DNA of 64,000 nt from the NCBI GenBank assembly GCA_964515375.1, contig CAZERF010000002.1, forward strand, positions 93,164 to 157,163, read 5' to 3'. This stretch comes from an uncultured Candidatus Saccharibacteria bacterium. GTDB lineage: Bacteria; Patescibacteriota; Minisyncoccia; Phycocordibacterales; UBA6899. Positions 15,300 to 46,076 of this stretch are shown here, in pieces. Made by a program: the position numbers and the translations under genes. Within the stretch, counting starts at the first letter, position 1. Every line of letters starts with the position of its first letter. A model generated the notes under the pieces. The model was not told the DNA's origin. It made no database searches and saw only the letters and a program-made list of their open reading frames with translations.

Positions 15300-15303
15300 G
15301 TAG

Positions 15304-15357
15304 TGGGCGATAGAGGACTCGAACCTCTGACCTTCGCAGTGTAAATGCGTTGCTCTA
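15304..15357 (-). repeat. Partial duplicate of tRNA-Val covering tRNA positions ~22-76 (the 3' 54 nt)
   Basis: Exact 54-nt identity with 15489-15542. Lies on the same strand 185 bp away from the complete gene. Confidence 0.8.
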
Positions 15358-15488
15358 TTCGAGATCGGCTTCGGAGTGAAACGAAGAAGGCGAGTGGTGA
15401 CCGGCGTCCGCGGCGGCGGACACCTTGTCGAAAAAGCCGGCCCGGTGCCGAGGCCTTGCGAGGACCGGCTTACCAACTGAGCTTGATG

Positions 15489-15561
15489 TGGGCGATAGAG
15501 GACTCGAACCTCTGACCTTCGCAGTGTAAATGCGTTGCTCTACCAACTGAGCTAATCGCCC
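15489..15561 (-). tRNA. tRNA-Val (anticodon TAC)
   Basis: Reverse complement reads GGGCGATTAGCTCAGTTGGTAGAGCAACGCATTTACACTGCGAAGGTCAGAGGTTCGAGTCCTCTATCGCCCA, a canonical cloverleaf. Confidence 0.9.
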
Positions 15562-18411: not shown

Positions 18412-18498
18412 GTCCGGGTGGCGAAATTGGTAGACGCACTACCTTGAGGTGGTAGCGCCCGTTAGGGCATGGAGGTTCAAGTCCTCTCCCGGACACCA
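18412..18498 (+). tRNA. tRNA-Leu (anticodon GAG)
   Basis: Acceptor GTCCGGG/CCCGGAC; anticodon loop TTGAGGT; long variable arm; T-arm GGAGG-TTCAAGT-CCTCT; CCA is encoded. A bidirectional terminator follows. Confidence 0.85.
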
Positions 18499-18640
18499 TA
18501 CAAAAAAAAGCGTCTTTGACGCTTTTTTTTGTATGGTGTCTGGAGCAAGACAACTGCTTGTCTTGCGCGAGAGGACTTGAAGACCCCGCCGTTGTTTCGG
18601 CTTTGCGAAACCGCCGGGGTGTACAGCGTCGGTAAGACGA

Positions 18641-18659
18641 AAGTCCTCTCCCGGACACC
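18641..18659 (+). repeat. 19-nt direct repeat of the tRNA-Leu(GAG) 3' end (att-core-like scar)
   Basis: aagtcctctcccggacacc is identical to 18479-18497. An inverted T-arm fragment cgagaggacttgaa lies at 18568-18581. Confidence 0.7.
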
Positions 18660-18755: not shown

Positions 18756-20174
18756 GTGGTTTTGTCTGTGTCACCTTTTCTCGCCATTCTTGTTATCAAG
18801 AGTACTATGCAACCATTACTTCATTCTCCCGGCGTGAAATTCATTGTCGTCGGCGTGCTCTCCCTTTTACTCATGATCCCGATGGGCTTTGTTTCTTCAC
18901 TCGTGAACGAGCGTGAATCTCGTTATCAGGAGGTGGAACGGTCGATCGCTGTCGAATGGGGTGCACGACAGTATTTTGCGGGACCCATGCTTCTGCTTCC
19001 GGTGACCGAGACTGTTCGGACGAAAGAGGGAAGCGAAGAGGTAGAGCGACTCCATGTCGTGCTCCCTGACACGTATCACGTTGATGTGAATCTTGACCCA
19101 ACGACCAAGCATCGAGGACTCTTTGCTGTCGGCGTGTACGCCGCGCAAGTCTCGGGGCGCGCGTCCTTTGCAACCGACGAGGCGCTTCGCGAGGCACGAG
19201 TTCCGCTTGCGCGGGTCGCATGGGATCGGGCACAACTCGTTTTTCCGATCGCGGATACTCGTTCGATCGCACCTTCGTCCGTACTTTCCGTGAACGGAGA
19301 GAGTATCGCCTTGCTTCCCGGGAATCCCGGACTTGTTGGTGGTACGGGTGTGCACGCGATGATTCCCGCCACGCGCGCCCATGCGCTTGATATCGATTTC
19401 TCCTTTGCGGTGAACGGTTCTTCGGGGCTTTCGCTCCTTCCTGTCGGCAATACGACCAACGCGACCATTGCGTCGTCCGCGCTCGCCCCATCCTTCGTGG
19501 GCGGATACCTTCCGAGCGCTTCGACCATGAGTGAGAAAGGTTTTCGCGGGGAATGGACCGTTTCCGCGTTGGGACGTTCATTTCCTCAGGTGGGGACAGA
19601 CCTTGGTATCATGAGTGCCAAGGATACCCCTGTCTATCAAGACAAGTTTGCTCCGTATGAAACAAAACTCGCAACAGAGGGCGGGCACGGCGTCGCGATC
19701 TTTGGTGTCTCGCTCGTGACGGCGACCGATTTCTATGCAAGTGTTGCGCGGTCGACCAAATACGCGCTCCTCTTCATTGGGCTCACCTTCCTTGCATTTC
19801 TCTTGATCGAGATCCTCATGCGCGCGCGGATACACCCTATTCAATATCTTTTGGTCGGTGCGGCGCTCGCACTCTTCTATCTACTCCTCCTTTCTCTTTC
19901 GGAGCATCTTGGCTTTGCGTGGGCGTATCTTCTCGCGACATTCATGATCGTCGGATTGGTGGGTGCGTATGTCCGCACAGTCTTTCGTTCGGGGCGCTTT
20001 GCACTCTTGATCGGGGCCTTGCTCGCGCTTCTCTACGGCTACCTCTACGCAGTGCTCCGCATGGATGATTACGCGCTCCTCTTTGGAACGATTCTCCTTT
20101 TCCTTGTGCTTGCGGGGGTCATGTTTGCGACCCGTCGCGTCGACTGGTATGCGCGCGACAAGGTGGGAGAGTGA
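18756..20174 (+). CDS. creD: Inner membrane protein CreD (cell envelope integrity / colicin E2 tolerance family)
   Basis: N-terminal TM helix, a large periplasmic domain, then four or five C-terminal TM helices. VNERESRYQEVERSIAVEWGARQYFAGPMLLLP fits CreD. The true start is possibly the ATG near 18807. Confidence 0.65.
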   Translation: MVLSVSPFLAILVIKSTMQPLLHSPGVKFIVVGVLSLLLMIPMGFVSSLVNERESRYQEVERSIAVEWGARQYFAGPMLLLPVTETVRTKEGSEEVERLHVVLPDTYHVDVNLDPTTKHRGLFAVGVYAAQVSGRASFATDEALREARVPLARVAWDRAQLVFPIADTRSIAPSSVLSVNGESIALLPGNPGLVGGTGVHAMIPATRAHALDIDFSFAVNGSSGLSLLPVGNTTNATIASSALAPSFVGGYLPSASTMSEKGFRGEWTVSALGRSFPQVGTDLGIMSAKDTPVYQDKFAPYETKLATEGGHGVAIFGVSLVTATDFYASVARSTKYALLFIGLTFLAFLLIEILMRARIHPIQYLLVGAALALFYLLLLSLSEHLGFAWAYLLATFMIVGLVGAYVRTVFRSGRFALLIGALLALLYGYLYAVLRMDDYALLFGTILLFLVLAGVMFATRRVDWYARDKVGE

Positions 20175-20271
20175 ACGCGGGAATCCCTCCCGTGGAGGGA
20201 CTCTCCTCACTAAGGAAAAAGCACAGGCCATTGCGACCTGTGCTTTTCTTTTGCCCTCATTCGAGGACTCA

Positions 20272-20408
20272 TGGTGGGCACGGGGAGACTTGAACATTAC
20301 ATGTTCCGTACAGGACCGCGCGTCGTACTCGTCTTCAGAAAGACTCCGTGCGACATGCTCGTCCTTTCAAGTTCTCCCACACAGGCAAGCAGTTGCCTGT
20401 TCGTGCCC
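20272..20408 (-). pseudogene. tRNA-like pseudo-element of 137 nt: an intact tRNA-Leu acceptor 5' strand and D-arm, ~80 nt of unrelated sequence, then a T-loop/acceptor 3' end with CCA
   Basis: Reverse complement begins GGGCACGAACAGGCAACTGCTTGCCTG and ends GTTCAAGTCTCCCCGTGCCCACCA. It cannot be folded as a cloverleaf. Shares its ends with the adjacent tRNA-Leu(CAG). Confidence 0.6.
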
Positions 20409-20423
20409 TCATTCGAGGACTCA

Positions 20424-20508
20424 TGGTGGGCACGGGGAGACTTGAACTCCCAAGGGTTTCCCCATACGCTTCTGAGACGTACGCGTATACCAGTTCCGCC
20501 ACGTGCCC
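20424..20508 (-). tRNA. tRNA-Leu (anticodon CAG)
   Basis: Reverse complement reads GGGCACGTGGCGGAACTGGTATACGCGTACGTCTCAGAAGCGTATGGGGAAACCCTTGGGAGTTCAAGTCTCCCCGTGCCCACCA. Acceptor, anticodon arm (loop CTCAGAA), long variable arm and T-arm all pair. Confidence 0.8.
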
Positions 20509-20910
20509 GTATAATAATATTTATAAAACTTCTGAGACGTACGCGACTGCATGTTTTTCGCAGTTCCGCTACGTGCCCTTTGTCTATTTTTTTACAGAAC
20601 CGTTGAGGTCGTGCGGGAGTTCATTATCTATCCAGCAGTTCCGCCACGCGCTCACTTGTTCCGTTGTTTGTTTGACCGTCCAAGTCTAGCAGACTTCCGA
20701 CCTTTTTTCTATATCCCGATCTCGTTTCTCTCGAGGATGGGGGGGCGAGGAGTTCAATACTCTAGAATACATTTGACAAAGTGTCAATCTTTACGACATT
20801 CTCTCGAATGCTAGTGTAAAAAAGGAAGTCTGTTGTTTGTCAGTAAGGGAAAGTATGCGTTTGTTACGCCCCGCTTTCCCTCCTCAACCCTCAACACAAG
20901 GAGGAACATC

Positions 20911-22833
20911 ATGTCCATCTTTCGTGCGTATCAAAATCGTTACGCGGAAGCTCAGGAAGAAGAGATGTCCGTTCAGGACTACCTCGAACTCTGCAAGAAG
21001 GATCCGCTCGCTTACGCGACGTCCGCCGAGCGTATGCTCGCGGCCATCGGCGAACCGGAATATGTTGACACTCGGGTTGACCCGCGTCTCTCGCGTATCT
21101 TTGCGAACAAGGTGCTCAAGGTCTACCCGGCCTTTCGTGATTTTTACGGCATGGAGGAAGCGATCGAGAACATCGTCGCGTACTTCCGTCACGCGGCGCA
21201 AGGTCTTGAAGAGAAGAAGCAAGTCCTCTACCTCCTCGGTCCTGTCGGCGGCGGCAAGTCGTCGCTCGCTGAAAAGCTGAAGAGCTTGATCGAGAAGAGG
21301 CCATTCTACGCGATCAAAGGTTCGCCGGTGCACGAGTCTCCGCTCGGACTGTTCAATGCCGCGGAAGACGGCGCGATTCTCGAAGAAGAATTCGGGATCC
21401 CCCGTCGCTACCTCACGACCATCATGAGCCCCTGGGCGGTGAAGCGTCTCCATGAATTTGGCGGCGACATCACCAGGTTCCGTGTCGTGAAGTTGAATCC
21501 GTCGGTGCTGCGCCAGGTCGCGGTCGCCAAGACCGAGCCGGGCGACGAGAACAACCAAGACATCTCGTCTTTGGTCGGCAAGATCGACATCCGCAAACTC
21601 GAGCAGTACTCACAGGACGATCCGGACGCGTATAGCTATGCCGGCGGCCTGTGTCTCGCGAACCGGGGCCTCCTCGAATTCGTCGAGATGTTCAAGGCGC
21701 CGATCAAGGTGCTCCATCCGCTACTCACTGCAACACAGGAGGGTAACTACAAGGGCACCGAAGGGTTCGGCGCTATTCCGTTCGACGGGGTCATCCTGGC
21801 GCACTCGAACGAGTCCGAATGGACTACGTTCAAGAGCAACAAGAACAACGAGGCCTTCCTCGACCGCATCTACACGGTCAAGGTCCCGTATTGTCTGCGC
21901 GTCTCCGACGAGATCCATATCTACGAGAAGCTTCTGGCGAACAGTTCGCTGTCGGAAGCGCCGTGTGCGCCTGATACACTCAAGATGCTGGCGCAGTTCG
22001 CGGTCCTGTCCCGAATGAAGGAGCCCGAAAATTCGAGCATCTTCTCCAAGATGCGCGTGTATGACGGCGAGAATCTGAAGGATACCGACCCGAAGGCCAA
22101 GAGTCACCAGGAGTACAGCGATTATGCGGGCGTTGACGAAGGGATGACCGGACTCTCGACCCGTTTCGCGTTCAAGGTGCTCTCCAAGGTGTTCAACTTT
22201 GACCACCGCGAGGTCGCCGCCAACCCGGTGCATCTCATGTATGTTCTCGAGCAGCAGATCGAGGCCGAGCAGTATCCGGCTGAAACCGAAGCGCGCTTCA
22301 TGGGGTACATCAAGGAGTACCTGGCGCCCAAGTATGCCGAGTTTATCGGCAAGGAGATCCAGACCGCGTACCTCGAAAGCTACAGTGAGTACGGTCAGAA
22401 CATTTTCGATCGTTATGTCACGTATGCCGACTTCTGGATCCAGGACCAGGAATTCCGCGACCCGAACACCGGCGAGATCCTCGACCGGAAGGCGCTCAAC
22501 GAGGAACTGGAGAAGATCGAGAAGCCGGCCGGAATCAGCAACCCGAAAGACTTCCGCAACGAGGTGGTCAACTTCGTACTCCGCGCTCGCGCGAGGCATG
22601 AAGGAGCGAATCCTCCGTGGACGTCCTACGAAAAGCTGCGCGCGGTGATCGAGAAGAAGATGTTCGCGAATACCGAGGACCTGCTGCCGGTTATCAGCTT
22701 CAATGCCAAGGCATCGGCCGATGAGCAGAAGAAGCACCAGGACTTCGTCGATCGCATGGGCGAAAAGGGCTACACCGAGAAACAAGTGCGACTCTTGTGC
22801 GAGTGGTATCTGCGCGTGCGCAAGTCGTCGTGA
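20911..22833 (+). CDS. prkA: PrkA family serine protein kinase (YeaG-like)
   Basis: 640 aa. Walker A LLGPVGGGKSSLAE. Near-collinear similarity to enterobacterial YeaG along its whole length. Strong RBS aaggagg. The start was moved to the ATG at 20911. Confidence 0.9.
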   Translation: MSIFRAYQNRYAEAQEEEMSVQDYLELCKKDPLAYATSAERMLAAIGEPEYVDTRVDPRLSRIFANKVLKVYPAFRDFYGMEEAIENIVAYFRHAAQGLEEKKQVLYLLGPVGGGKSSLAEKLKSLIEKRPFYAIKGSPVHESPLGLFNAAEDGAILEEEFGIPRRYLTTIMSPWAVKRLHEFGGDITRFRVVKLNPSVLRQVAVAKTEPGDENNQDISSLVGKIDIRKLEQYSQDDPDAYSYAGGLCLANRGLLEFVEMFKAPIKVLHPLLTATQEGNYKGTEGFGAIPFDGVILAHSNESEWTTFKSNKNNEAFLDRIYTVKVPYCLRVSDEIHIYEKLLANSSLSEAPCAPDTLKMLAQFAVLSRMKEPENSSIFSKMRVYDGENLKDTDPKAKSHQEYSDYAGVDEGMTGLSTRFAFKVLSKVFNFDHREVAANPVHLMYVLEQQIEAEQYPAETEARFMGYIKEYLAPKYAEFIGKEIQTAYLESYSEYGQNIFDRYVTYADFWIQDQEFRDPNTGEILDRKALNEELEKIEKPAGISNPKDFRNEVVNFVLRARARHEGANPPWTSYEKLRAVIEKKMFANTEDLLPVISFNAKASADEQKKHQDFVDRMGEKGYTEKQVRLLCEWYLRVRKSS

Positions 22834-22888
22834 TCATTTGAACCACAGGGGTGCGCAATCGCGCACCCCTTTCTTTTTGGAGAGTACC

Positions 22889-24163
22889 ATGTCCGTACGT
22901 ATCGTTGATCGACGGTTCGACAGCAAGGGAAAGAGTACGGTGAATCGTCAGCGCTTCATGCGTCGTTTCAAGACACAGATCAAGAAGGCGGTCGCGGACG
23001 CGATCTCCGGTCGATCGGTAAAAGACCTTGAGAGCGGTGAAAGTGTTTCTATTCCGGCTCGCGATCTCAATGAGCCCAATTTCCGACACGATAAAGGCGG
23101 TATCTGGGAGCAAGTTTTCACCGGGAATGATCGTTACACTCAGGGAGACGAGATCGGTCGTCCGAGCGGTGGAGGCGGTGGAGGCGGTGGTGGTCAAGCG
23201 AGTGATAGTGGAGAGCATGAGGATGATTTCACGTTCTCGCTCTCCCGAGAAGAGTTCATGGACCTGTTCTTTGAGGACATGGAACTTCCGCGTTTGATCC
23301 GCAAGCAACTCGGCAAGGCGAAAGAGTACAAGATGGAGCATGCGGGCATCGTCACCGACGGAACCCCGTCGAATCTTCGTTTGGTACGAACTCGCCAGGT
23401 GGGAATCGGGCGCAAGATCGGCATGACCGCGGAGAGTCGCAAGGCGCTTCAGGATGCGCAACATGAACTTGAGGTCGCGATCGAATGTGAAGGGGAGGAA
23501 AGCGATGATGTCGCGGCAATCCGCTTTGCGATCGATCAGCTTCGCGCCAAGATCGCTCGTGTACCGTTCATCGACACCTTCGACCTGCGCTTTAATGCGC
23601 ACAAGCAAGTCCCCAAGCCGACAACGCAAGCCGTCATGTTCTGTGTGATGGACGTGTCCGGTTCGATGGACGAGGAGCGCAAGGATATCGCAAAACGTTT
23701 CTTCATGTTGTTGTACCTCTTCCTCACTCGGCAGTATGAGAATGTCGAAGTGGTCTTTATCCGCCATCATACGGCAGCGAAGGAGGTCGACGAGGAAGAA
23801 TTCTTCCACTCGCGCGAGTCGGGTGGAACGGTTGTTTCAAGTGCGCTCGAACTCATGCGGACGATCATCAAGGAACGTTATGCCAACGGACAGTGGAACA
23901 TCTACGGCGCGCAGGCATCCGACGGAGACAACTGGGACAATGACTCGCCCGGTTGCAGGAAATTGCTTTCGGAAGCCGGAGGCATATTGAGCTGGTGTCA
24001 ATACTTCGCGTATATCGAGATCGCCGACACTCCTCAGGGTCTGTGGAAGAACTACGAACAGGTCGCCGAGGCATTCCAAGGAAAATTCGCGATGCGTCGC
24101 GTCAAAGAGCGTGCTGATGTCTATCCGGTGCTCCACGATCTTTTCAAGAAGGAGGCAGTATGA
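22889..24163 (+). CDS. yeaH: YeaH/YhbH family protein (DUF444, UPF0229)
   Basis: MSVRIVDRRFDSKGKSTVNRQRFMRRFKTQIKKAV...SGESVSIP...poly-Gly...DFTFSLSREEFMDLFFEDMELP matches YeaH. The start was moved to the ATG at 22889. Confidence 0.85.
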   Translation: MSVRIVDRRFDSKGKSTVNRQRFMRRFKTQIKKAVADAISGRSVKDLESGESVSIPARDLNEPNFRHDKGGIWEQVFTGNDRYTQGDEIGRPSGGGGGGGGGQASDSGEHEDDFTFSLSREEFMDLFFEDMELPRLIRKQLGKAKEYKMEHAGIVTDGTPSNLRLVRTRQVGIGRKIGMTAESRKALQDAQHELEVAIECEGEESDDVAAIRFAIDQLRAKIARVPFIDTFDLRFNAHKQVPKPTTQAVMFCVMDVSGSMDEERKDIAKRFFMLLYLFLTRQYENVEVVFIRHHTAAKEVDEEEFFHSRESGGTVVSSALELMRTIIKERYANGQWNIYGAQASDGDNWDNDSPGCRKLLSEAGGILSWCQYFAYIEIADTPQGLWKNYEQVAEAFQGKFAMRRVKERADVYPVLHDLFKKEAV

Positions 24164-25710
24164 ACGCAAGAAAACGTAGTGGAGTGTCGCGAGGAAGGAA
24201 AACTCGTGAGCTCCCTTGGACGCCTGATTGGACGTTTGATTCCATTGAGCGTTATCACGAGGAGATCGCGCGCGTCGCGCGAGGGTATGGTCTCGATACG
24301 TATCCGATACAGATCGAGGTCATCACCGCCGAGCAGATGATGGACGCCTACGCCTCTGTGGGCATGCCGGTCAACTACCATCATTGGTCGTTCGGGAAGC
24401 ACTTCCTTTCGACCGAGAAAGGGTATCGACGCGGTCAGATGGGCTTGGCCTACGAGATCGTCATCAATTCCGATCCGTGTATCGCCTACCTCATGGAGGA
24501 GAACACGCTCACAATGCAAGGACTCGTGATCGCGCATGCGGCCTACGGCCACAACAGCTTCTTCAAGGGCAACTACCTCTTCCGGCAGTGGACCCATGCG
24601 GACGCGATCATCGACTACCTCATCTTCGCCCGCAACTACATCACCAAGTGTGAGGAGAAGTATGGCGAGGAAGAGGTCGAGAAGCTCCTTGATTCCTGTC
24701 ACGCGCTCATGAACTTGGGAGTGGACAAGTATAAGCGTCCCTCCAAATTGAGCGCCGAGGACGAAAAACATCGTCAGCAGGAACGGCAGGAGTATCTACA
24801 ATCTCAGGTCAATGAACTATGGAGGAAAAGTGACGGATGGTTTGAGTCGTATGATGAAAAGGATTCGACCCAAGCTCGCTTCCCGGAAGAGCCGCAGGAG
24901 AACCTGCTGTACTTCATCGAGAAGAATGCTCCGCTCTTGGAACCCTGGCAGCGTGAGATCGTGCGGATCGTGCGTAAGATCGCGCAGTATTTCTTCCCCC
25001 AGCGTCAGACGCAAGTCATGAACGAAGGGTGGGCGACGTATTGGCACTATACGATCTTAAACACGCTTTACGACGAAGGGCTACTTGCGGACGGTTTCAT
25101 GCTCGAGTTTCTCCAGTCTCACACCGGAGTGGTCGCGCAACCGCCGTACAATAGTAGGTGGTACAACGGAGTCAATCCGTACGCACTCGGCTTCGCGATG
25201 TGGCGAGATATTCGTCGCATTTGCGAAAACCCCGACGACGAGGACCGAGAATGGTTCCCGGAGATCGCGGGGAGTGATTGGCGCGAGACGTTCGACTTCG
25301 CGATGCGCAACTTCAAGGATGAGAGCTTCATTGCGCAGTATCTGTCGCCCAAGGTCATGCGGGAATTTCGCATGTTTGCGATCCTCGACGATGACGAGGA
25401 GGCGAAACTCAAGGTCTCCGCGATCCACGACGGATCCGGATATCGAGATGTTCGGCGAGTGCTTTCCGAGCAATACAACCTCGGGAACCGCGAGCCTGAC
25501 ATTCAGGTCTGGAACGTCAACGTGAAGGGAAACCGGGCGCTCACCTTGCGCCACACGCAGTTCAATCGTCGTCCACTCCACGAATCCTCTCTTGAGGTCA
25601 TGAAGCATATCGCTCGGCTTTGGGGGTTTGCGGTTCGACTGGAGATGTGCGACGCGGACGGAAAGTGTTCGATCGTGCACGAGGAGCGCAAGGAAAAGCG
25701 CAATCCCTGA
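24160..25710 (+). CDS. spoVR: SpoVR family protein (YcgB-like)
   Basis: 516 aa. Third gene of the conserved prkA-yeaH-spoVR triad, overlapping the yeaH stop. WSFGKHF and GLVIAHAAYGHNSFFKGN regions are present. Confidence 0.8.
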   Translation: MNARKRSGVSRGRKTRELPWTPDWTFDSIERYHEEIARVARGYGLDTYPIQIEVITAEQMMDAYASVGMPVNYHHWSFGKHFLSTEKGYRRGQMGLAYEIVINSDPCIAYLMEENTLTMQGLVIAHAAYGHNSFFKGNYLFRQWTHADAIIDYLIFARNYITKCEEKYGEEEVEKLLDSCHALMNLGVDKYKRPSKLSAEDEKHRQQERQEYLQSQVNELWRKSDGWFESYDEKDSTQARFPEEPQENLLYFIEKNAPLLEPWQREIVRIVRKIAQYFFPQRQTQVMNEGWATYWHYTILNTLYDEGLLADGFMLEFLQSHTGVVAQPPYNSRWYNGVNPYALGFAMWRDIRRICENPDDEDREWFPEIAGSDWRETFDFAMRNFKDESFIAQYLSPKVMREFRMFAILDDDEEAKLKVSAIHDGSGYRDVRRVLSEQYNLGNREPDIQVWNVNVKGNRALTLRHTQFNRRPLHESSLEVMKHIARLWGFAVRLEMCDADGKCSIVHEERKEKRNP

Positions 25711-27569: not shown

Positions 27570-27643
27570 TGGTGCCTATGGTGTAATGGTTAGCACTGAG
27601 GTTTGTGGAACCTCCAGCCAGGGTTCGAATCCCTGTAGGCACC
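27570..27643 (+). tRNA. tRNA-His (anticodon GTG), with encoded G-1
   Basis: GGTGCCTATGGTGTAATGGTTAGCACTGAGGTTTGTGGAACCTCCAGCCAGGGTTCGAATCCCTGTAGGCACCC. Anticodon loop TTGTGGA. Confidence 0.85.
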
Positions 27644-27722
27644 CCCGACAGAGAGACCCAAGAGGCGACCGAGAAGGGTCGCTTTTTGGTAAAGAAAGTT
27701 CTAGACTCAGTAGGTCAAAAAC

Positions 27723-28703
27723 ATGAATATCGAGGAAAGAAAAATTCTCAAAGCACTCACTGATGATAGGAGGGGGTTACTGTCCCCAGCAGATTTCGTA
27801 AACGGAATTGCGCAACACGATCGGCGGGCAGTAGAAAACCTTGTCACGGGTGGCTATGTCGAGGAGGTACCACAAGATGTTAATGGAGGTCATCGGGGAA
27901 CATATTCTATAAATTTTTATAGAGCAACAGAAAAGGGTCGAAATGTCTTTTCTCCATGGAGACAAAAAGTTTGGTTTAATCTTAAGACGGAAACCTCACT
28001 TTGGGTAGGAATCTCCTCGATCATGATTGGAGTTCTTTCAATACTTATTTCTAGCGCCGTGGCTTTTGGTGTTCCTTGGTATCAAAATGTATCAAATGAA
28101 CAAAAAGAAATTGAGGCAATTTATAAAAATCTCATTACGAATGAGGATATTCTCATATCGAACTCAAATAATGCCAGATTTCTTTTAACTGCAACAAGTG
28201 TCACTGCATTGCCGGAGTCATACCTGGAAGATGAGATCAAAGGTGATATTGGAAAAATACTTCAGGATAAGTTTGGTTTAATTCAATACAGATTTTTCGT
28301 TTATTACTTGCAGCAGATTGAACTTTTCAACTTGGAAATAGAAGAAATGAGGAACGCACTCGTTGTCGGGGGTTCAACATCAACAGCATATCTAAGTGCC
28401 CAAAAGGCGTATCTTTCAACTGTAGACGAAATAAGCAAGGAGGGGATGGATGCAAGGTTTAGTCACATAAGAGATGTTGAATGCCTTACACATTTATTTG
28501 AGCGCAATTTTGAGTATTTATCTATTGATCCGCGCGGCAAAATAGAAAAATGTTCAAATGAATCCCTTAATCGAATTTATTATAATTTTGGCTTTCTCGA
28601 GGCGGCAACACCAAGGTGGATGCTACCAGCATACAGAGACGCGCTAAATGAAAGAAGGGCGGGTTTCGGTGACACAATAATTAACATCGCCGGAGGTTAT
28701 TAG
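27723..28703 (+). CDS. Hypothetical membrane protein with an N-terminal winged-helix-like domain. AT-rich island cargo.
   Basis: ILKALTDDRRGLLSPADFVNGIAQHDRRAVENLVTGGYVEEV (wHTH-like), then the TM helix LWVGISSIMIGVLSILISSAVAFGV, then a ~200-aa C-terminal domain. Confidence 0.55.
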   Translation: MNIEERKILKALTDDRRGLLSPADFVNGIAQHDRRAVENLVTGGYVEEVPQDVNGGHRGTYSINFYRATEKGRNVFSPWRQKVWFNLKTETSLWVGISSIMIGVLSILISSAVAFGVPWYQNVSNEQKEIEAIYKNLITNEDILISNSNNARFLLTATSVTALPESYLEDEIKGDIGKILQDKFGLIQYRFFVYYLQQIELFNLEIEEMRNALVVGGSTSTAYLSAQKAYLSTVDEISKEGMDARFSHIRDVECLTHLFERNFEYLSIDPRGKIEKCSNESLNRIYYNFGFLEAATPRWMLPAYRDALNERRAGFGDTIINIAGGY

Positions 28704-28711
28704 CTACTTTC

Positions 28712-29815
28712 ATGCCTCGCTTACATAAAGTAATTTCATGGCCAAGACGCAAGTTCATTGCTTTCGTCCTCCGAAAAAGAATCGGAAAAAATAAGTGGTC
28801 TGCTCACTTGATATTTGGCTTGCTCAGCATTTTAGATTTACTTGAATTTTTGTATATAAATACACAGGACACGGGAAATTACGACCACTATATTCCAAAA
28901 TTTCTTCTTCGCCGATTTCGAATTTCCGAAAAAGGCGCACACAGTAATTCACTGTTTACCTACACACTTAAATCAAAACTTGTAGAAAGGAAAAGCATCG
29001 ACGACGTTGCGGGGGAAATTGATTTTGACGTCTCAAAAGCTAGCGGCATTCCAAGTGACTTTGTAAACAAAAAAATATTTGCTGAATTTCTTGAGCCGAT
29101 AGCATCAAGAATAATAAAGCATATAAACACTGGAAATAATGATTTAACATATCTTGAGGCTAACACCCTTGCTGTTTATATGGGCCATCAAATCACCCGA
29201 GTGCCAGCATTCAGATCGTTGCTTCTAAAAATTTTCTCGATAGGAATAAGTGATGGGCGGATACTCTATTCTGAATTTGGAGATAAGAAAGCACTCCGCG
29301 AAAAAATCGCCTTCAATTCTATTCTAATTACTTATGATCAGATTTTACGCACCAAACCACCCATTAAAGTCGATGGAGGTAAGCCGCAAGCGATAATGAT
29401 TTCTCTGCTAATTGCGCCTATTATTTCGGAAAAAATATACCGAAATAATAGTATGCATGTTATCGATATTCCTCAGGATAGTGGCAAGGAGTTTGTCATT
29501 TCAGACAACCCAGTAGTATTTATTGATTTCGAAAGAGCGACAGTTCTTCCGTTTGTTCCTTGGTGGGAAATAGGAACCCGCGATTTTTTAATAGCAATGC
29601 CAGTCTCAAGGAACAAGGCAATCATATATAGCAGAGTTAGTAGAAAACCGACAGAAACCGAACAGAACTCAATTGCCGAATTAATAAACTTTGCGCAATA
29701 TGCCTGTTCGAGAAAAGAGGTCTATTCTAACAACGAGAAAACGATATTGCTCCACCTAAATAAATACAAAACAGAGCTCGAAAAATTTCGGTTAATGTTT
29801 AGTTCTGAAGACTGA
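28712..29815 (+). CDS. DUF4238-like protein (candidate single-gene anti-phage / abortive-infection-type protein)
   Basis: The N-terminal motif NYDHYIPKFLLRRF resembles the DUF4238 HYxPQFYLRxF signature. AT-rich. Lies within the island. Confidence 0.5.
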   Translation: MPRLHKVISWPRRKFIAFVLRKRIGKNKWSAHLIFGLLSILDLLEFLYINTQDTGNYDHYIPKFLLRRFRISEKGAHSNSLFTYTLKSKLVERKSIDDVAGEIDFDVSKASGIPSDFVNKKIFAEFLEPIASRIIKHINTGNNDLTYLEANTLAVYMGHQITRVPAFRSLLLKIFSIGISDGRILYSEFGDKKALREKIAFNSILITYDQILRTKPPIKVDGGKPQAIMISLLIAPIISEKIYRNNSMHVIDIPQDSGKEFVISDNPVVFIDFERATVLPFVPWWEIGTRDFLIAMPVSRNKAIIYSRVSRKPTETEQNSIAELINFAQYACSRKEVYSNNEKTILLHLNKYKTELEKFRLMFSSED

Positions 29816-30025
29816 TTTTCTTGTCTTTGAGCACTGTCTTGTTTTTTCATGCACCCAGGAAGCCATCGCTTCTCGAGCGTCATTCCTTTTTTGAGCATGT
29901 ACCCGCCATACGTGTGTACACATTACCAGAGGGGCTTGCAATATATAGATATATGTGTGATTATAGAATCACTTTTATTAACACCGTTTCTTTATTGGAG
30001 GAAGGGAGTAGCATTGAGATTACTT

Positions 30026-32593
30026 ATGGAAACCAAACTTTTTACGACTAAGTTCGTGCGCATATTTTTTATATTAATTAGTGGTGTTTTACTCTCCTCC
30101 CAGACAGCGCTTGCTGCCGTCAGTTATAGCCAAACGGTGACACTCCAGCCCGGATGGAATATCGTTTCAACCCCACGCATTCTTGAGTCGCATAACTTCT
30201 CCATGCCAGAGACGTCTACAAATCTCAGTGTGTTCATGCTGGACGCATCGGATCCAAGTGGGTGGGCACCAATGTCTGGTGAGTTTGCGCCACTCTACGG
30301 ATATTTCATCAATAACAAGACCGCAACATCGCAGACGCTCACCTTTAATTTCAAGGCAAGCACAACCCCGAACGAGCGACTGTTCGATCGGTCATTTGCT
30401 ACTTCCGGCTGGTACTCAATTGGCGTTGCAAATCCCACTTACGCAGATCGCCAAGGTGAGGCGAACGTAGACGAGAACAATCCCTCCCAAGTATTTGATT
30501 CTGTTATTGCTTCGACAGATTTAGTCGTGGACTTTACCGATGCAGACTCGGTATTTAGCCCTGCGAGTGTTGCACTTGCTGATCCTTGGGGAGCTGCGAT
30601 TGCCACTGACGTGAACACCCTTGCTGATATTCGTGACACCAAGGGTTATGCGATCTATATAAATACTTCCGGATCACATTACATTGGATTTCAGAACGAG
30701 AGTGACGATGGTGGCACGGGTTCGGTCCCAACATATACGCCAGGCACACTAAGCATCACCAAGGCAGCAGATTCTCCTTCAGGAAATGTTATCCAGAATG
30801 GCTCAGGGGTAACACTTGGAAAATTCACATTCCAGGCGCAAGGAGAGAGACTGAAGGTTGAAAACCTCAAAGTTGCGCTAACCTCATCCGACACATCTTG
30901 GGGGAGTATTCGCAACGGCGCACTGTTTGCGAATGGTGTACAGGTAGGATCGACGAACAATATTCTTACCGCAACAGGAACGCAGTTCAATCTTGGTAGC
31001 TCCCTCATCATTGATGCTGGTCAAAGTGTCACCATCGAAGTACGCGGTGATATTTATGACAATGATGGCACTAATGATTCTTCTTCCGGAGACACCATAA
31101 AAGTCCAGTTGCTTGCCGGAACATCCAATGTCTATCGACTTACAACACTTGATTATATTTCAAGCGAGAGTAAATCTGCCAACATCGTGACAGTAGCAGA
31201 AGCGACACTTGCCCTTGCGAAATATGCGAGCTATGCAAACCAGACCATCATTGTTCCACAAACCGCATTTAAGATCGGCGAATACCGCCTTACTGCCGGA
31301 GCAGACGAGGGGGTAAATCTCGATACAATCACGCTCGCACTTGGGGGGTCGGCGACAGTTACACACCTCACCAATCTTTACGTGGTGTATGGCTCAAAGA
31401 CCTCGACCGTAAAGGCAACAGGAGCAACATCTCAGCAGTGGTCCATCAATGAGGCACTGTCGGCGAATGGCACGATGAGCATTGCGGTCTATGCAGATAT
31501 GAGCGGAAGCATTTTAAGTGCCTCGACTACGATAACCACACTGACTCTTTCGGGTACCGGACAAGGTTCTGGTAGCCCAGTCACATCGCCCGCTGTTACT
31601 GGACAAACGATCACTGCTGGCGAAGGCGTGCTCACTGGAACAGTGGATTCCTCGACCCCCATTTCTGCACTCCTTGTGGGCAACTCAATGCCAAAGGTAG
31701 CATCATTTAAATTTACCGCATCAAATGATTCTTTCACGATTACCGAACTCGCAGTAACAGCGAAAAGCGTAGCTGATGCGAGTGCAGTTACTGAGCTAGT
31801 GTTCAAAGACGGAGCGACAGAGATCAGACGTGTTTCTTACAATGGAGCTGTTGCCACTGCCACTGGTCTTAGTGTCGTGGCACAGTTCAATGCGACTAAG
31901 GTTATTGATGTGTATGCGAATCTCGGTTCTATCGGCACAGGATTTGTGGACACAGGTGCCAATGTGGGAATTACACTCACGAGTTTCAAGGCGCAAAATT
32001 CAAACGGCGTAAACACGACTCACTCAGTTAGTCTTGCAAGCAACGATTTCTACGCACACAAGACAAAACCAACACTCACAAACGTTGCGCTTCCGACCTC
32101 CGTACTATCTTCGGGCACAGTGACGATTGCAAAGGTAAACGTTACAGCAGACGCAGGAGGTACACTCGCGTGGAGGAAAATAGTATGGAATGTCGCCACA
32201 TCTTCTCCTGGAACGTTTACCGTCGGTTCTCCTGCAGTCTACGATGCAGCAAATGAGTCAACACCGCTTGCCAATGTCACCACGTCGATTGATCCGAGCA
32301 CTGGTGTTATTACCGTTACCTCAACAGTCGACCAAGAGGTGAGTGGTTCAAAGACCTATGTGCTCAAGGCAACTATTGGCGGATCGGTTCAGACTGGTGC
32401 ATCTGTTTCTACGAGCATTGCAGGAGGAGTCACATCACACAGTGTGCCAACCACGTATGCAGGGGCAGCATCGAACTCGTCCTTTGTGTGGTCCGATGAA
32501 TCAGTTGTGGGACACAGTGATACAACCACTGACTGGATGGATAACTATCTCGTGAAAAATCTTCCAACAGATTCACAGACACTCACAAAATAA
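30026..32593 (+). CDS. Large secreted Thr/Ser/Gly-rich beta-repeat surface protein (adhesin or S-layer-like)
   Basis: Signal peptide METKLFTTKFVRIFFILISGVLLSSQTALAAV. 855 aa of low-complexity repeats. The start was moved to the ATG at 30026. Confidence 0.65.
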   Translation: METKLFTTKFVRIFFILISGVLLSSQTALAAVSYSQTVTLQPGWNIVSTPRILESHNFSMPETSTNLSVFMLDASDPSGWAPMSGEFAPLYGYFINNKTATSQTLTFNFKASTTPNERLFDRSFATSGWYSIGVANPTYADRQGEANVDENNPSQVFDSVIASTDLVVDFTDADSVFSPASVALADPWGAAIATDVNTLADIRDTKGYAIYINTSGSHYIGFQNESDDGGTGSVPTYTPGTLSITKAADSPSGNVIQNGSGVTLGKFTFQAQGERLKVENLKVALTSSDTSWGSIRNGALFANGVQVGSTNNILTATGTQFNLGSSLIIDAGQSVTIEVRGDIYDNDGTNDSSSGDTIKVQLLAGTSNVYRLTTLDYISSESKSANIVTVAEATLALAKYASYANQTIIVPQTAFKIGEYRLTAGADEGVNLDTITLALGGSATVTHLTNLYVVYGSKTSTVKATGATSQQWSINEALSANGTMSIAVYADMSGSILSASTTITTLTLSGTGQGSGSPVTSPAVTGQTITAGEGVLTGTVDSSTPISALLVGNSMPKVASFKFTASNDSFTITELAVTAKSVADASAVTELVFKDGATEIRRVSYNGAVATATGLSVVAQFNATKVIDVYANLGSIGTGFVDTGANVGITLTSFKAQNSNGVNTTHSVSLASNDFYAHKTKPTLTNVALPTSVLSSGTVTIAKVNVTADAGGTLAWRKIVWNVATSSPGTFTVGSPAVYDAANESTPLANVTTSIDPSTGVITVTSTVDQEVSGSKTYVLKATIGGSVQTGASVSTSIAGGVTSHSVPTTYAGAASNSSFVWSDESVVGHSDTTTDWMDNYLVKNLPTDSQTLTK

Positions 32594-32594
32594 T

Positions 32595-33590
32595 ATGAAA
32601 AAACTCATCCTCTCTATACTTCTCATCCTTCCGCTCAGTGCATTTGCCGCACTGCCAGCATTTCCGATGTCGTTTTATGGGACTGCAACGATTAATGGCA
32701 CCCCTGCACCAGTTGGGACAATCGTTCGTGCATATTACGGAACGACACTTGCGGGGCAGGTGAGTATGAGCGAGGTCGGCATCTATGGTTACGATAATCC
32801 CACCAAACAACAGCTTCTTATCGGCGAGGGTGCCACAGCGATCCGTTTTACTGTTCAATCAAGCACTATAAATAGTGGGACTGAAACTGAAGGAACAGCA
32901 TCGCAATCACACCCCTCGTTTGTATCAGGCGATGTAGTCTCAAAAAATCTCACCTTTACATGGAGTGCTCCTGTTCCAGCACCTACGCCTGCACCATCAG
33001 GTGGCGGGGGTGGAGGTGGTGGCGGAGGGGGAGGAGGGGGCGGTGGAGGTGGATCCGCAACACTGTACGGCTGTATGGATAAAAAAGCGGTAAATTATAG
33101 CCCCATTGCTACTGTCGATAATAAAGCATGCGTTTACCCATCTGGGGTGACTGCAAGTACGACAGCACCGACACCTGCTCCAGTCACGCAGACAAGCACA
33201 GTAAAACCCGTCGGAGAGGTTGCGGGTGCATCGACCTTTATGTTCACTCGTAATCTCAATGTGGGTTCAACGGGAAACGACGTAACCGAATTACAGAAGC
33301 GACTAACTGCGGAAGGATACTATGTTGGTCCAATTACTGGGTACTTCGGTCCGCTCACTGGTGCTGGGGTGAAGAAGTATCAATCAGCACACGGACTAGA
33401 GCAGGTGGGGAACGTTGGGCCAAAGACTCGATCAATACTGAATCAGGGTGGGAGTGTGCTTGGAGCAAGCACTGTATCAACATCGGTCACGGTATTAACA
33501 CCGGAGGCTCGTGCAACGCTCATCAAGCAATTGCTCGCAATGATCATTGAGCTTCAGAAGCAACTTGCAGCACTCAAGGCGCAACAATAG
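32595..33590 (+). CDS. Secreted protein with an 18-residue poly-Gly linker and a C-terminal peptidoglycan-binding domain (PG_binding_1)
   Basis: Signal peptide MKKLILSILLILPLSAFA. The stretch FTRNLNVGSTGNDVTELQKRLTAEGYYVGPITGYFGPLTGAGVKKYQ is a canonical PGBD1. Start lies 2 nt after the previous stop. Confidence 0.7.
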   Translation: MKKLILSILLILPLSAFAALPAFPMSFYGTATINGTPAPVGTIVRAYYGTTLAGQVSMSEVGIYGYDNPTKQQLLIGEGATAIRFTVQSSTINSGTETEGTASQSHPSFVSGDVVSKNLTFTWSAPVPAPTPAPSGGGGGGGGGGGGGGGGGGSATLYGCMDKKAVNYSPIATVDNKACVYPSGVTASTTAPTPAPVTQTSTVKPVGEVAGASTFMFTRNLNVGSTGNDVTELQKRLTAEGYYVGPITGYFGPLTGAGVKKYQSAHGLEQVGNVGPKTRSILNQGGSVLGASTVSTSVTVLTPEARATLIKQLLAMIIELQKQLAALKAQQ

Positions 33591-33605
33591 AGGAGTGGTT
33601 TGCCA

Positions 33606-34925: not shown

Positions 34926-35065
34926 TGAATGACGCTACCCTCCCAGGGAGTCCAGGAATGGCAGATAGTACGCAATAAGGGTAAATATAGTCAAAAATAT
35001 CAATCCTTGCGTAAGGATTGACAATCCTTACATAGGAGAATAGTATTTACGCATAAACAAAAACC

Positions 35066-35284
35066 ATGAAACAAGAAGAAAAGCGCGAAAGATTTAAGAG
35101 GCTCGGGACGCAACGTACAAACGCGGTGCTCCAGAAGATCAAAGTGCTCAGCAATTGTGCGAATCGGAGCGCGTATGAGTATACGGAAGAGGAGGTGAAT
35201 AAGATTTTTTCAGAGATTGAACGGCGGGTACGCGAGGCGAAGGCGAAATTCCATTTCCCGAAGACGAAAGAATTTAAACTATAA
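35066..35284 (+). CDS. Small basic hypothetical protein, first gene of the GHKL/Type III operon
   Basis: 72 aa, Lys/Arg/Glu-rich helical protein. Lies 4 nt upstream of the GHKL ATPase gene. Confidence 0.45.
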   Translation: MKQEEKRERFKRLGTQRTNAVLQKIKVLSNCANRSAYEYTEEEVNKIFSEIERRVREAKAKFHFPKTKEFKL

Positions 35285-35288
35285 AAAT

Positions 35289-37906: not shown

Positions 37907-37922
37907 TCACAAGATAAACAGC

Positions 37923-39818: not shown

Positions 39819-39820
39819 TC

Positions 39821-42766: not shown

Positions 42767-42782
42767 CACAACAACAAACACC

Positions 42783-43316: not shown

Positions 43317-43325
43317 ACGAGCGAA

Positions 43326-44666: not shown

Positions 44667-44940
44667 TAATCAATTTGGTTTCGATTTGGGGTTGAAGCGC
44701 AAACGCTATTTGGTGAGAAACAAAAAACTCCGCGACCGCGAATGACATTCTGTGCGAGCAATGCATTCGTTACTACTTGGGAGTTCTACTTAGTGAAAAA
44801 CCTATTTGGGATACTGTTTGGTTATCTTTATGGTATGCCTTTGACGCTTTTTCGCAATGGATAGTTATCCACTATTACGCTATTCGCACCGTTGTCGGTT
44901 GGAGTATGTGGAACAAGTATGTTGGCGGTACAATATAGTG

Positions 44941-45823: not shown

Positions 45824-45844
45824 TGCCTACAGGGATTCGAAAGA
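45824..45844 (-). repeat. Inverted copy of the tRNA-His 3'-end core (inverted att-core fragment)
   Basis: Reverse complement ctttcgaatccctgtaggcac has 19 nt matching tRNA-His 27622-27640. It sits 214 bp before attR. Confidence 0.7.
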
Positions 45845-46057: not shown

Positions 46058-46076
46058 CGAATCCCTGTAGGCACCC
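46058..46076 (+). repeat. attR: 19-bp direct repeat of the tRNA-His 3' end
   Basis: cgaatccctgtaggcaccc is identical to 27625-27643. Confidence 0.8.

Follow-up and report, generated by a model that had tools for sequence, protein, structure and literature searches.

What is the 137-nt element that lies downstream of a leucine tRNA gene in an uncultured Candidatus Saccharibacteria bacterium, and why are pieces of the tRNA sequence found within it and around it? The host is an uncultivated, ultra-small, CPR/Parcubacteria-like bacterium. The stretch analysed here, termed the window, consists of 64,000 nt of assembly GCA_964515375.1 (contig CAZERF010000002.1, positions 93,164–157,163), and it was compared with related metagenome and MAG contigs, which carry L numbers. 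The element, termed E1, belongs to an array with the following features, given in 5′ to 3′ order on the minus strand:

20759–20787, minus strand: TTGACA-17-TAGAGT, a candidate sigma-70-like promoter ahead of the whole array, from a consensus scan
20683–20691, minus strand: TGCTAGACT, resembling an extended -10 motif, 29 nt ahead of unit 1, recurrent in relatives
20579–20653, minus strand: upstream unit 1, degenerate tRNA positions 1–18 (GAGCGCGTGGCGGAACTG) plus a spacer, identical in L081
20509–20578, minus strand: upstream unit 2, a pseudo-5′-half found by repeat analysis, with homologous units in L097, L130 and L081
20424–20508, minus strand: tRNA-Leu(CAG), functional-looking, with encoded CCA (ARAGORN; Rfam RF00005, 54 bits)
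20404–20423, minus strand: trailer copy 1 (TGAGTCCTCGAATGAGGGCA), within a 44-nt exact repeat; it overlaps the start of E1 by 5 nt
20272–20408, minus strand: E1, 137 nt, from GGGCACG at 20408 to ACCA at 20272, from sequence and RNA fold
20252–20271, minus strand: trailer copy 2, the distal section of the 44-nt repeat, from repeat analysis
20212–20247, minus strand: intrinsic terminator, an inverted repeat with an 11-bp stem (AAAAGCACAGG/CCTGTGCTTTT), a 9-nt loop, then a T run

The tRNA-Leu(CAG) was placed at 20424–20508 in the original prediction, and both ARAGORN and the Rfam tRNA model agree. Its 3′ segment takes part in an exact direct repeat of 44 nt (20252–20295 and 20404–20447, spacing 152), which consists of tRNA positions 62–85 followed by 20 nt of trailer. 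This duplication had been reported before and is real; the earlier coordinates were off by 1–2 nt and the string quoted was 43 nt long. The 108-nt interval between the two repeats contains no open reading frame, and no integrase or recombinase is found in that interval or among the neighbouring genes. The gene neighbours of the locus are CreD, PrkA, DUF444 and SpoVR; a search of genome contigs for prkA gave matches in Betaproteobacteria that show no upstream tRNA. The terminator at 20212–20247 closes the tRNA–E1 unit. As a terminator is absent between the tRNA and E1 but present after E1, E1 appears to be co-transcribed with the tRNA.

Upstream of the tRNA, the two pseudo-5′-half units have lengths of 70–75 nt. 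Unit 2 displays, in order, tRNA positions 1–18 with one mismatch, an expanded D hairpin, an exact copy of positions 24–40, with its end on the 3′ side of the anticodon loop, and a spacer rich in A/T. The predicted 17-nt copy of the anticodon region (20469–20485 and 20529–20545) is exact, and the two predicted acceptor/D copies are present as well, at 20561–20578 (94% identity) and 20636–20653 (89%). The units are closer to each other than to the tRNA. L097, L130 and L081 carry one to three homologues of unit 2, and between one and three upstream units are found in near-identical strains. The extended -10-like motif also stands 9–36 nt ahead of the first 5′-half copy or the tRNA in L085, L087, L164, L097 and L130, and may represent the promoter; unit 1 occupies the position where the tRNA start is expected relative to it. 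With a 44-nt exact repeat, copies of 17–18 nt that follow the tRNA order, and a layout that recurs in L097, L130, L081 and L082, which are independent assemblies, the repeats of tRNA pieces are not due to chance.

E1 itself is divided into the following segments:

20408–20402, minus strand: left arm, GGGCACG
20400–20381, minus strand: side hairpin, 8 bp with a CUGC tetraloop
20378–20366, minus strand: GGGAG-A-ACTTGAA, the reverse complement of the T-stem 3′ strand and T-loop
20364–20313, minus strand: helix A, from the fold
20312–20295, minus strand: short hairpin B, from the fold
20294–20272, minus strand: right arm TTCAAGTCTCCCCGTGCCCACCA, repeating the tRNA 3′ end in direct orientation

The element was described earlier as starting sixteen nucleotides after the tRNA with a copy of the acceptor 5′ end and a good D-arm, and as ending like a tRNA. 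The element is present and starts 15 nt after the tRNA, and the resemblance at its end holds, the right arm finishing in ACCA. The 5′ part is a different matter. The supposed D-arm is the side hairpin, which is not D-arm-like, and the stretch after this hairpin reverse-complements the T-loop and the T-stem 3′ strand, so that the 5′ part of E1 copies the tRNA 3′ end in inverted orientation, not the tRNA 5′ end. In the predicted RNA fold, a branched hairpin of −63.5 kcal/mol (z = −5.2), the inverted copy pairs with the direct copy and forms the closing helix. E1 begins with a sequence identical to the acceptor 5′ strand and finishes with T-loop, acceptor 3′ strand and CCA, and for this reason it could be taken for an intron-containing, split or permuted tRNA gene, yet such an identity is very improbable. 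ARAGORN in intron mode and Rfam yield a single tRNA at 20424–20508; ARAGORN -i at default and 90% thresholds gives no tRNA call in E1, and E1 matches neither tRNA nor any other family in an Rfam search of 20100–20800 with E-values up to 10. E1 has no anticodon arm, and after its T-stem 5′ strand comes not a T-loop but the T-loop complement. A permuted or split tRNA was also rejected on the layout, since a complete gene stands in the middle, with the 5′ halves ahead of it and the 3′ fragment behind. The proposal of serial partial duplication and recombination therefore stands for the duplicated tRNA pieces and for recombination at the DNA level, but not for a disrupted, intron-containing or permuted tRNA.

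Several other identities were considered by eye and rejected, as the fit is superficial and is not supported by Rfam. These are the hammerhead, group II domain V, the group II 5′ end (GUGCG), IS200/IS605 ends, the IS91 target (GTTC/CTTG), the K-turn, and TIGR arrays, whose units are 36 nt and unrelated.

E1 is conserved in L097 and L082, with one compensatory change in helix A of L082 (G-C to A-U). L083 and L187 carry E1-type elements of the same architecture but with other acceptor sequences, and in each case both arms match the tRNA of the same genome (GGGCGTG/CACGCCC in L083 and L187 vs. GGGCACG/CGTGCCC in the window). The arms of the L087 element likewise follow the T-loop variant of the L087 tRNA. 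Thus the arms track the cognate tRNA. Four versions of the side hairpin show a constant CUGC loop with compensated stem changes, and all versions fold alike, with z values of −5.2 to −8.7. Predicted minimum-free-energy folds of E1, L187, L083, E2 (see below), L143 and L087 share a closing helix and two inner hairpins; as a MAFFT alignment of six E1/E2-type sequences places the arms out of register, the support for this subtype comes from inspection and single-sequence folds. The 3′ end of tRNA-Leu(CAG) itself is found copied 60–255 nt downstream in approximately 20 of 119 loci. In many lineages right arms begin at tRNA position 57, and the 5′-half copies all finish at the 3′ side of the anticodon loop.

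The element is polymorphic for presence and absence. L130 has an identical tRNA followed by the trailer (trailer copy 1 of the window) and, directly 3′ of it, the same terminator, i.e. an empty site, and in L087 the tRNA is directly followed by a terminator. E1 is absent from both, and the identical tRNA of L130 without it shows that E1 is dispensable. Within a genome the trailer copies carry the same variant, GAGGGCA in the window and GAGGAC in L097; the repeats evolve in concert. The interiors of elements at one and the same tRNA differ between lineages, and tandem element copies are found in L188 and at the tRNA-His of the window.

Other arrangements were seen in the same set of contigs. 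A structured module of roughly 125 nt follows a 5′ half in L085 and L164, and is found inverted inside the T-loop of a partial tRNA copy in L207. In L089, LAGLIDADG genes adjoin replaced tRNA-Leu genes with old 5′ remnants. The short-read contigs L081, L082 and L083 stop inside the tRNA-Leu(CAG) gene or its E1; a practical consequence of these repeats is that short-read assemblies break precisely at tRNA genes.

Two further loci of the window, both on the plus strand, carry elements of the same design:

18534–18659, plus strand: E2, behind tRNA-Leu(GAG) (18412–18498) and its terminator, from sequence and fold (z = −6.5)
45820–46077, plus strand: two tandem canonical E cores of tRNA-His, with matches of 86.9 and 37.7 bits to the covariance model R1

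E2 consists of an inverted 3′-end copy, a side hairpin with a CUGC loop, two inner hairpins and a direct 3′-end copy, and is nearly identical in L082. The tRNA-His cores are bordered by inverted and direct copies of the tRNA-His 3′ end. The existence of such elements behind other tRNAs of the window and in many related bacteria means that E1 is not a one-off heap of fragments. An 18-kb island stands between tRNA-His and its E cores, and the orthologous locus of L085 is without it. This island was rejected as an autonomous form of E; a 7-bp GGCACCC repeat at the very end of the tRNA forms its junctions, and the tRNA-His element with its terminator lies intact outside it.

R1, reported here, is a covariance model of the canonical core, GAAAG-RCGGAGC ... 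GAGYCGGGGUCG ... GUGACC. The core is associated with tRNA genes: 36 of 41 R1 matches sit 12–88 nt downstream of a same-strand tRNA, and in 7 of these 36 another same-strand tRNA is found 4–79 nt beyond the core, which places these copies inside tRNA operons. The covariation is strong and strand-specific. Of 21 pairs, 15 show compensatory changes; in 34 distinct sequences 90.7% of pairing cells are paired vs. 64.6% in shuffles, and the covariation score is 0.653 vs. 0.210 in shuffles, with none of 500 shuffles reaching the observed value and slid controls at 0.06–0.14. A conserved G·U pair marks the tRNA-sense strand. The core is spread over at least eight tRNA species but is carried by only 34 of 222 tRNA genes. 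The closing helix of the Leu and His copies, and of some Val copies, consists of the inverted and direct cognate tRNA 3′ end (T-loop to discriminator or CCA), and is predicted to reproduce the acceptor/T-stem stack of the cognate tRNA. Ile, Arg and Lys copies have no long tRNA-derived arms, so the tRNA-like end is not general. Many canonical copies stand behind a good intrinsic terminator, and their transcription would need read-through. Orthologous elements remain at the same tRNA across genera and resemble each other more than they resemble copies at different tRNAs of the same genome. In Rfam 15 no family matches the core, whether the window and 12 loci are searched at gathering score or five loci at E-values up to 5; the only matches overall were to tRNA and tmRNA, plus a weak match to a terminator hairpin. 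A literature search for a CPR tRNA-trailer motif found nothing relevant, which does not prove its absence. Thus a structured element with covariation support, outside Rfam 15, follows many tRNA genes.

E1 gives 5.1 bits on R1 (E-value about 10), which is not a significant score, and E2 gives a weak match (12 bits, E-value = 0.06). In the absence of an R1 match, E1 is tied to the covariation-supported family by position, arms, topology and a short similarity (GAAAGGACGAGC vs. GAAAGGCGGAGC). The explanation favoured here, with about an even chance of being correct, is that E1, which is diverged and dispensable, belongs to an uncatalogued class of structured elements of tRNA trailers and spacers, within a single tRNA-Leu(CAG) transcription unit. 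The unit would consist of two tandem pseudo-5′-half units in the 5′ leader, the tRNA, and E1 in the 3′ trailer. Members of the class sit just downstream of or between tRNA genes of CPR/Parcubacteria-like bacteria, on the tRNA strand, with a predicted branched-hairpin fold, and are probably transcribed together with the tRNA. The tRNA-like end may allow RNase P, a 3′ endonuclease and CCA addition to cut out E1 and leave the tRNA intact. The 44-nt identity would be maintained by exchange between the right arm and the tRNA end, through gene conversion or unequal crossing-over, and the same process could delete or duplicate the element.

E1 and its relatives may also be non-autonomous mini mobile elements, or scars of these, that integrate into tRNA genes, the E elements at the T-loop and the upstream units at the anticodon loop, with a replacement tRNA piece displacing the old one, as in tRNA-targeting islands. 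Such elements would be mobilised by a recombinase or homing endonuclease encoded elsewhere. This is possible, although doubtful. Direct repeats formed by a regenerated tRNA and a displaced 3′ fragment, an identity that extends into the trailer, and the empty site of L130 are as expected of it, as are the recurrent boundaries at position 57 and the anticodon loop, different interiors at the same site, and tandem copies of which the distal one is more decayed (86.9 vs. 37.7 bits at tRNA-His). The order X – hairpin – inverted X – body – X would be expected from a Campbell-type or folded-hairpin integration of a small circle, and the 125-nt module inverted in the L207 T-loop and the L089 LAGLIDADG genes could be added. 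Weighing against the favoured explanation, the patchiness of the class (34 of 222 genes, differing interiors, E1 absent from L130 and L087) is more like the gain and loss of a selfish element than like an essential RNA, and a strand-specific fold with G·T pairs would also fit folded single-stranded DNA. However, the 108 nt between the repeats carry no open reading frame, the neighbouring genes include no integrase, and a limited set of viral contigs, phage records and plasmid records yielded no free element with a matching site. The tRNA 3′ end has no match in viral contigs, and matches there to the core pattern come without a tRNA or convincing model support, one of them weak (22.7 bits, L217); phage records show no match for E1 or the core (His core), and plasmid records none for the core. 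Orthologous elements keep to the same tRNA across genera, the greater similarity of orthologues than of same-genome copies argues against recent movement, and hopping between different tRNAs would yield mismatched acceptor stems. The sole real island of the window uses a different 7-bp junction and leaves the tRNA-His element intact.

The direct-inverted-direct order of the three copies is the classic geometry for alternative pairing. E1 could then be a cis-acting switch in control of tRNA maturation or termination, with two possible partners for the left arm, which is antisense to the tRNA 3′ end. Pairing with the tRNA would lengthen the trailer/terminator hairpin and keep the tRNA from folding, and pairing with the right arm would release the tRNA. 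In L087 and in E2 of the window, the tRNA 3′ end, terminator and left arm form one long palindrome, and trailers are enriched in inverted tRNA 3′-end copies (at least 8 nt in 30 of 203 loci vs. 7 of 203 controls). But a switch leaves the conserved core unexplained and shows no conserved ligand- or protein-binding logic, many family members are without long arms, and E1 is dispensable; it is considered improbable. There is a small chance that the tRNA pieces have neither function nor mobility and arose neutrally, through slippage during replication, priming from a fold-back at the trailer hairpin, and unequal crossing-over. The one to three upstream units of near-identical strains, the concerted repeats, the deletion between repeats in L130, and upstream units most alike among themselves, as tandem duplication predicts, all point in this direction. 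The compensatory changes that preserve the E1-type fold in L082, L083 and L187 and the canonical-core covariation over eight tRNA species do not, and small streamlined genomes would not be expected to retain neutral DNA at orthologous sites across genera.

Parts of this arrangement resemble known systems. CIMEs are non-autonomous derivatives of tRNA-gene islands. By the Islander logic for such islands and their att repeats (PMC4383910), E1 shares the regenerated tRNA and displaced 3′ fragment as direct repeats, an identity block that starts in the T-loop and passes the 3′ end, repeat-mediated loss, and uninterrupted sites in relatives (L130, L087). It differs in an interval of 108 nt that carries no recombinase and in an inverted copy of the same tRNA segment with a conserved fold, and in that no free form of E was found and that elements are conserved at orthologous tRNAs across genera.

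The MALAT1 mascRNA is a small RNA made by the processing of a tRNA-like precursor. Small RNAs also come from tRNA precursors in the dicistronic tRNA-snoRNA genes of plants, as cited in PMC12045711, and in the 3′ETS-leuZ of E. coli, as mentioned in PMC6191717. These have in common with E1 a structured non-coding RNA behind or between tRNA genes, presumably released by tRNA processing, but they do not carry sense and antisense copies of the neighbouring tRNA 3′ end, and E1 is known here from its sequence. The tRNA-like bacterial Y RNAs (YrlA; PMC4201824) and the tRNA-like domain of tmRNA share with E1 an acceptor/T-stem-like stack built from the 5′ and 3′ ends of a larger RNA. E1 differs in that it is unlinked to rsr or smpB, copies a specific neighbouring tRNA, has no Rfam match, and is without a T-loop, the loop nucleotides being base-paired. 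Integron attC and CTXphi attP are recombination sites formed by a folded single strand. The likeness here is a strand-specific hairpin, the stem of which reproduces the double-stranded target sequence, and a post-integration order target – loop – inverted arm – body – target, a comparison that is topological only. No integron integrase or Xer-type site is evident at the E elements, and their body consists of two conserved hairpins, not a gene or phage genome.

It is possible, if rather unlikely, that the E elements are new tRNA-addressed structured RNAs of CPR bacteria, or else tiny elements that integrate as a folded hairpin at the tRNA end. As an RNA, such an element would surround a conserved three-way-junction core with sense and antisense tRNA 3′-end copies. 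Its action on the tRNA precursor would be in cis, for example through processing or self-cleavage, or it would resemble a guide RNA used by a tRNA-directed enzyme. The genomes of CPR/Patescibacteria are tiny and their RNA biology is poorly known, and either outcome would be new to them, an accessory RNA of tRNA operons or a selfish-DNA lifestyle on tRNA genes.

On the minus strand of positions 20200–20800, ARAGORN and Rfam find a single bona fide tRNA gene, tRNA-Leu(CAG), and behind it lies the 137-nt element termed E1. The features are as follows.

20508–20424, minus strand: tRNA-Leu(CAG) (ARAGORN; Rfam tRNA, 54 bits)
20408 to 20272, minus strand: E1, 137 nt (from sequence)
20247–20212, minus strand: a good terminator 3′ of E1

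An exact direct repeat of 44 nt, with copies at 20252–20295 and 20404–20447, contains tRNA positions 62–85 (GTTCAAGTCTCCCCGTGCCCACCA) and 20 nt of the trailer, the stretch 3′ of the tRNA; the original prediction was right about this duplication but placed it 1–2 nt off. On the 5′ side of the gene, the anticodon-stem/loop region is copied exactly (17 nt) and the acceptor/D 5′ region is present as two further copies, and these pieces are arranged as two units in tandem, 75 and 70 nt long. The predicted tRNA-Leu(CAG), 137-nt element and upstream copies are thus borne out by ARAGORN, Rfam and repeat analysis. The short-read contigs L081, L082 and L083, which come from relatives, break off within E1 or within the tRNA-Leu(CAG) gene, and the assemblies are evidently broken at this locus by the tRNA-piece repeats.

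The 5′ part of E1, for which the acceptor 5′ strand plus a good D-arm had been proposed, is not a copy of the tRNA 5′ half. It consists, in order, of GGGCACG, a CUGC-loop hairpin of 8 bp, and GGGAG-A-ACTTGAA. Because GGGAG-A-ACTTGAA is the reverse complement of the tRNA T-loop and T-stem 3′ strand, E1 is made up of an inverted and a direct copy of the tRNA 3′ end, the former interrupted by the hairpin, with ~70 nt of other sequence between them. These inverted (left) and direct (right) copies are termed arms. The RNA fold, a prediction as are all E-element folds here, gives −63.5 kcal/mol (z = −5.2) and displays a 7-bp acceptor-like stem, a side hairpin, a 12-bp T-stem/anti-T-loop helix and two inner hairpins. 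A disrupted, intron-containing or permuted tRNA had also been suggested. At E up to 10, neither Rfam tRNA nor another family of Rfam 15 matches E1, and ARAGORN with introns allowed, at default and 90% thresholds, finds no tRNA in E1; a disrupted tRNA is for practical purposes excluded.

Ribosomal protein L19 adjoining the locus has 78–81% identity to proteins of Candidatus Lloydbacteria, Uhrbacteria and the 'Parcubacteria group', and the gene order is that of MAG and metagenome contigs retrieved via CreD and L19. Both features put the window among CPR/Parcubacteria, a taxonomy based solely on protein similarity. In the related contigs L097 and L082 (CreD 77% identical) E1 is nearly unchanged, with one compensatory change in helix A of L082, G-C to A-U. 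E1-type arms are GGGCGTG and CACGCCC in L083 and GGGCGCG and CACGCCC in L187, versus GGGCACG/CGTGCCC in the window; in both, the arms agree with the tRNA of their own genome and not with that of the window. Across E1-type versions the CUGC loop of the side hairpin is constant and its stem is altered with compensation.

The window also carries a prkA/DUF444 (yeaH-like)/spoVR operon (20911–25710, plus strand), the latter two genes being assigned by Pfam domains only. PrkA shares about 90% identity with its counterparts in Thauera and other Rhodocyclaceae, at odds with the CPR/Parcubacteria type of L19 and gene order, and this suggests a recent horizontal transfer. A chimeric assembly is ruled out since the independent contig L081 has the same prkA adjoining the same tRNA-leader repeats, and the intergenic sequence upstream of the array is common to L097 and the window.

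The same design is found at other tRNAs of the window.

18412–18498: tRNA-Leu(GAG), followed by its own terminator and then E2
18534–18659: E2, the sister element, with parts as in E1, including the CUGC-loop hairpin
45820–46077: inverted and direct copies of the tRNA-His 3′ end

Behind tRNA-Leu(GAG) in L085 and L087, the arms reproduce the 3′ end of that tRNA exactly, one as the reverse complement and one directly, and track the tRNA's T-loop variant (TTCAAAT giving ATTTGAA/AAAT). A metagenome scan with the tRNA-Leu(CAG) 5′ region gave 120 additional loci, a choice that biases frequencies for other tRNAs. Flanking tRNA fragment copies of at least 10 nt are present at 47 of 119 loci, and about 20 of 119 tRNA-Leu(CAG) loci have their own 3′ end copied 60–255 nt downstream. 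These ~20 represent five different acceptor sequences, each agreeing with its own tRNA.

Two other tRNA loci of the window show further rearrangements. An 18-kb island (27647–45777) splits tRNA-His (27571–27646) from its own trailer, terminator and E element. A 7-bp GGCACCC repeat is found at both junctions, GC drops to 0.38 at 28–30 kb, and the orthologous locus in L085 is without the island, which encodes a DUF4238 protein and the following.

33606–34925, minus strand: large serine recombinase
43326–44666, minus strand: ParB-N6/N4 methylase

tRNA-Val (15488–15561) is followed by a partial second copy (15303–15487, minus strand) consisting of a D-arm piece, a 113-nt insert and then tRNA positions 19–74 exactly; the insert lies at a duplicated TA in the D-loop and holds a terminator-like hairpin. 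In L082 the anticodon stem of the tRNA-Val copy changes jointly with that of the tRNA.

Many elements share a core, GAAAG-RCGGAGC-hairpin-GCGAGYCGGGGUCGCGAG-hairpin-CUCGUGACC, after which the direct tRNA copy begins at tRNA position 57. An alignment of 13 cores forms a three-way junction of 21 pairs, 15 with compensatory changes. R1, a covariance model of this core, gave 41 matches at E up to 0.01 (E-values rough, from a short calibration) across the window and 140 searched loci (L081–L220). Of these, 36 are situated 12–88 nt 3′ of a same-strand tRNA (Leu-CAG, Leu-GAG, His, Ile-GAT, Arg-TCT, Arg-GCG, Val or Lys), and in 7 of the 36 a further same-strand tRNA follows 4–79 nt after the core, which therefore lies inside a tRNA operon. 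Among 34 distinct core sequences, in an alignment fitted to R1 that somewhat favours the structure, paired cells are 90.7% versus 64.6% in shuffles, and the covariation score is 0.653 versus 0.210 (reached by 0 of 500 shuffles; slid controls 0.06–0.14). A nearly invariant G·U pair assigns the fold to the tRNA-sense strand. The core has no matching family in Rfam 15 and is carried by only 34 of 222 tRNA genes. Long tRNA-derived arms are found in Leu, His and some Val copies; in Ile, Arg and Lys copies pairing is limited to the last few tRNA bases and the trailer. A weak R1 match at 366–443 (minus strand; 13.6 bits, E 0.02) has no tRNA close by, is coding sequence by appearance and is probably a chance match.

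E1 itself does not match R1 (5.1 bits, E about 10) and E2 does so weakly (12 bits). E1 shares position, strand, arms and topology with the canonical family and resembles it over a short stretch where helix A begins (GAAAGGACGAGCATGTC, against GAAAGGCGGAGCTATGTC in L143), and L143, L132, L160 and L163 have canonical or intermediate elements in its place behind tRNA-Leu(CAG). We therefore infer that E1 is a diverged relative of the canonical elements.

The 44-nt identity reaches beyond the tRNA into the trailer, and both trailer copies of a genome carry one and the same variant, GAGGGCA in the window and GAGGAC in L097. In L130 the tRNA is identical (85/85) and is followed by TGAGTCCTCGAATGAGGGCACGAA and the terminator, without E1; L087 also lacks E1. 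L188 has two tandem elements, and in the window tRNA-His element the proximal core is good and the distal one decayed. Thus E elements are homogenised, deleted and duplicated as the tRNA end recombines with the right arm, and E1 is not essential.

The most likely reading, at about an even chance, is that E1 would be transcribed together with tRNA-Leu(CAG), adopt the predicted fold and be cut off by tRNA-processing enzymes, with gene conversion keeping the repeats alike. Co-transcription is favoured because no terminator lies between the tRNA and E1 and a good one follows E1. The enzymes would recognise the acceptor/T-stem stack with 3′ (A)CCA, as is established for RNase P minimal substrates. 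It is rather unlikely, though the main competing explanation, that E1 is a mini integrative element or the scar of one. A small circle or folded hairpin that integrated would leave behind, in this order, the tRNA end, a hairpin, an inverted copy, the body and a direct copy, and patchiness and variable interiors fit as well. However, no recombinase was found, nor a free form among viral contigs, phage records and plasmid records; orthologues are kept at the same tRNA across genera, and a shift between tRNAs would give mismatched acceptor stems. That the copies are neutral slippage products is improbable, and so, slightly more, is a switch in which the antisense arm changes its pairing partner.

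Known systems resemble E1 in part. tRNA-gene islands (PMC4383910) have the same repeat logic, but there is no island at the E1 locus. RNAs from tRNA precursors (plant tRNA-snoRNA genes, 3′ETS-leuZ) are alike in position, and YrlA (PMC4201824) and tmRNA in the tRNA-like end. However, none of these joins sense and antisense copies of a neighbouring tRNA 3′ end around a conserved core, and no description of such an element was found in the literature on CPR bacteria, of which our coverage is incomplete.

The upstream units are pseudo-5′-halves and consist of tRNA positions 1–18, an expanded D hairpin, positions 24–40, stopping at the 3′ side of the anticodon loop, and an A/T-rich spacer. Close strains differ in how many they carry: L097 has one, the window two, L130 about three, and L081, with a PrkA identical to the window's, three. 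The units are closer to each other than to the tRNA and therefore multiplied as tandem repeats. The most upstream unit is the most decayed and occupies the tRNA-start position relative to the conserved TGCTAGACT motif. In L085 (about 6966–7135, minus strand) and L164, a 5′ half (1–41) belonging to another acceptor allele precedes a conserved multi-hairpin module of ~125 nt, after which comes the full tRNA-Leu(CAG) gene. The module is inverted in L207, inside the T-loop of a partial tRNA copy, and may be a small element inserting into tRNA loops. In L089 both tRNA-Leu genes are replaced by versions with other acceptor stems, leaving old 5′ remnants, and two LAGLIDADG homing-endonuclease-like genes each lie between an old remnant and a complete tRNA-Leu.

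L089 6702–7445, plus strand: LAGLIDADG homing-endonuclease-like gene 1
L089 7602–8297, minus strand: LAGLIDADG homing-endonuclease-like gene 2

This arrangement suggests that a homing endonuclease drove the gene replacement. In this group, the tRNA-Leu loci are clearly hot spots at which sequences are inserted and replaced.
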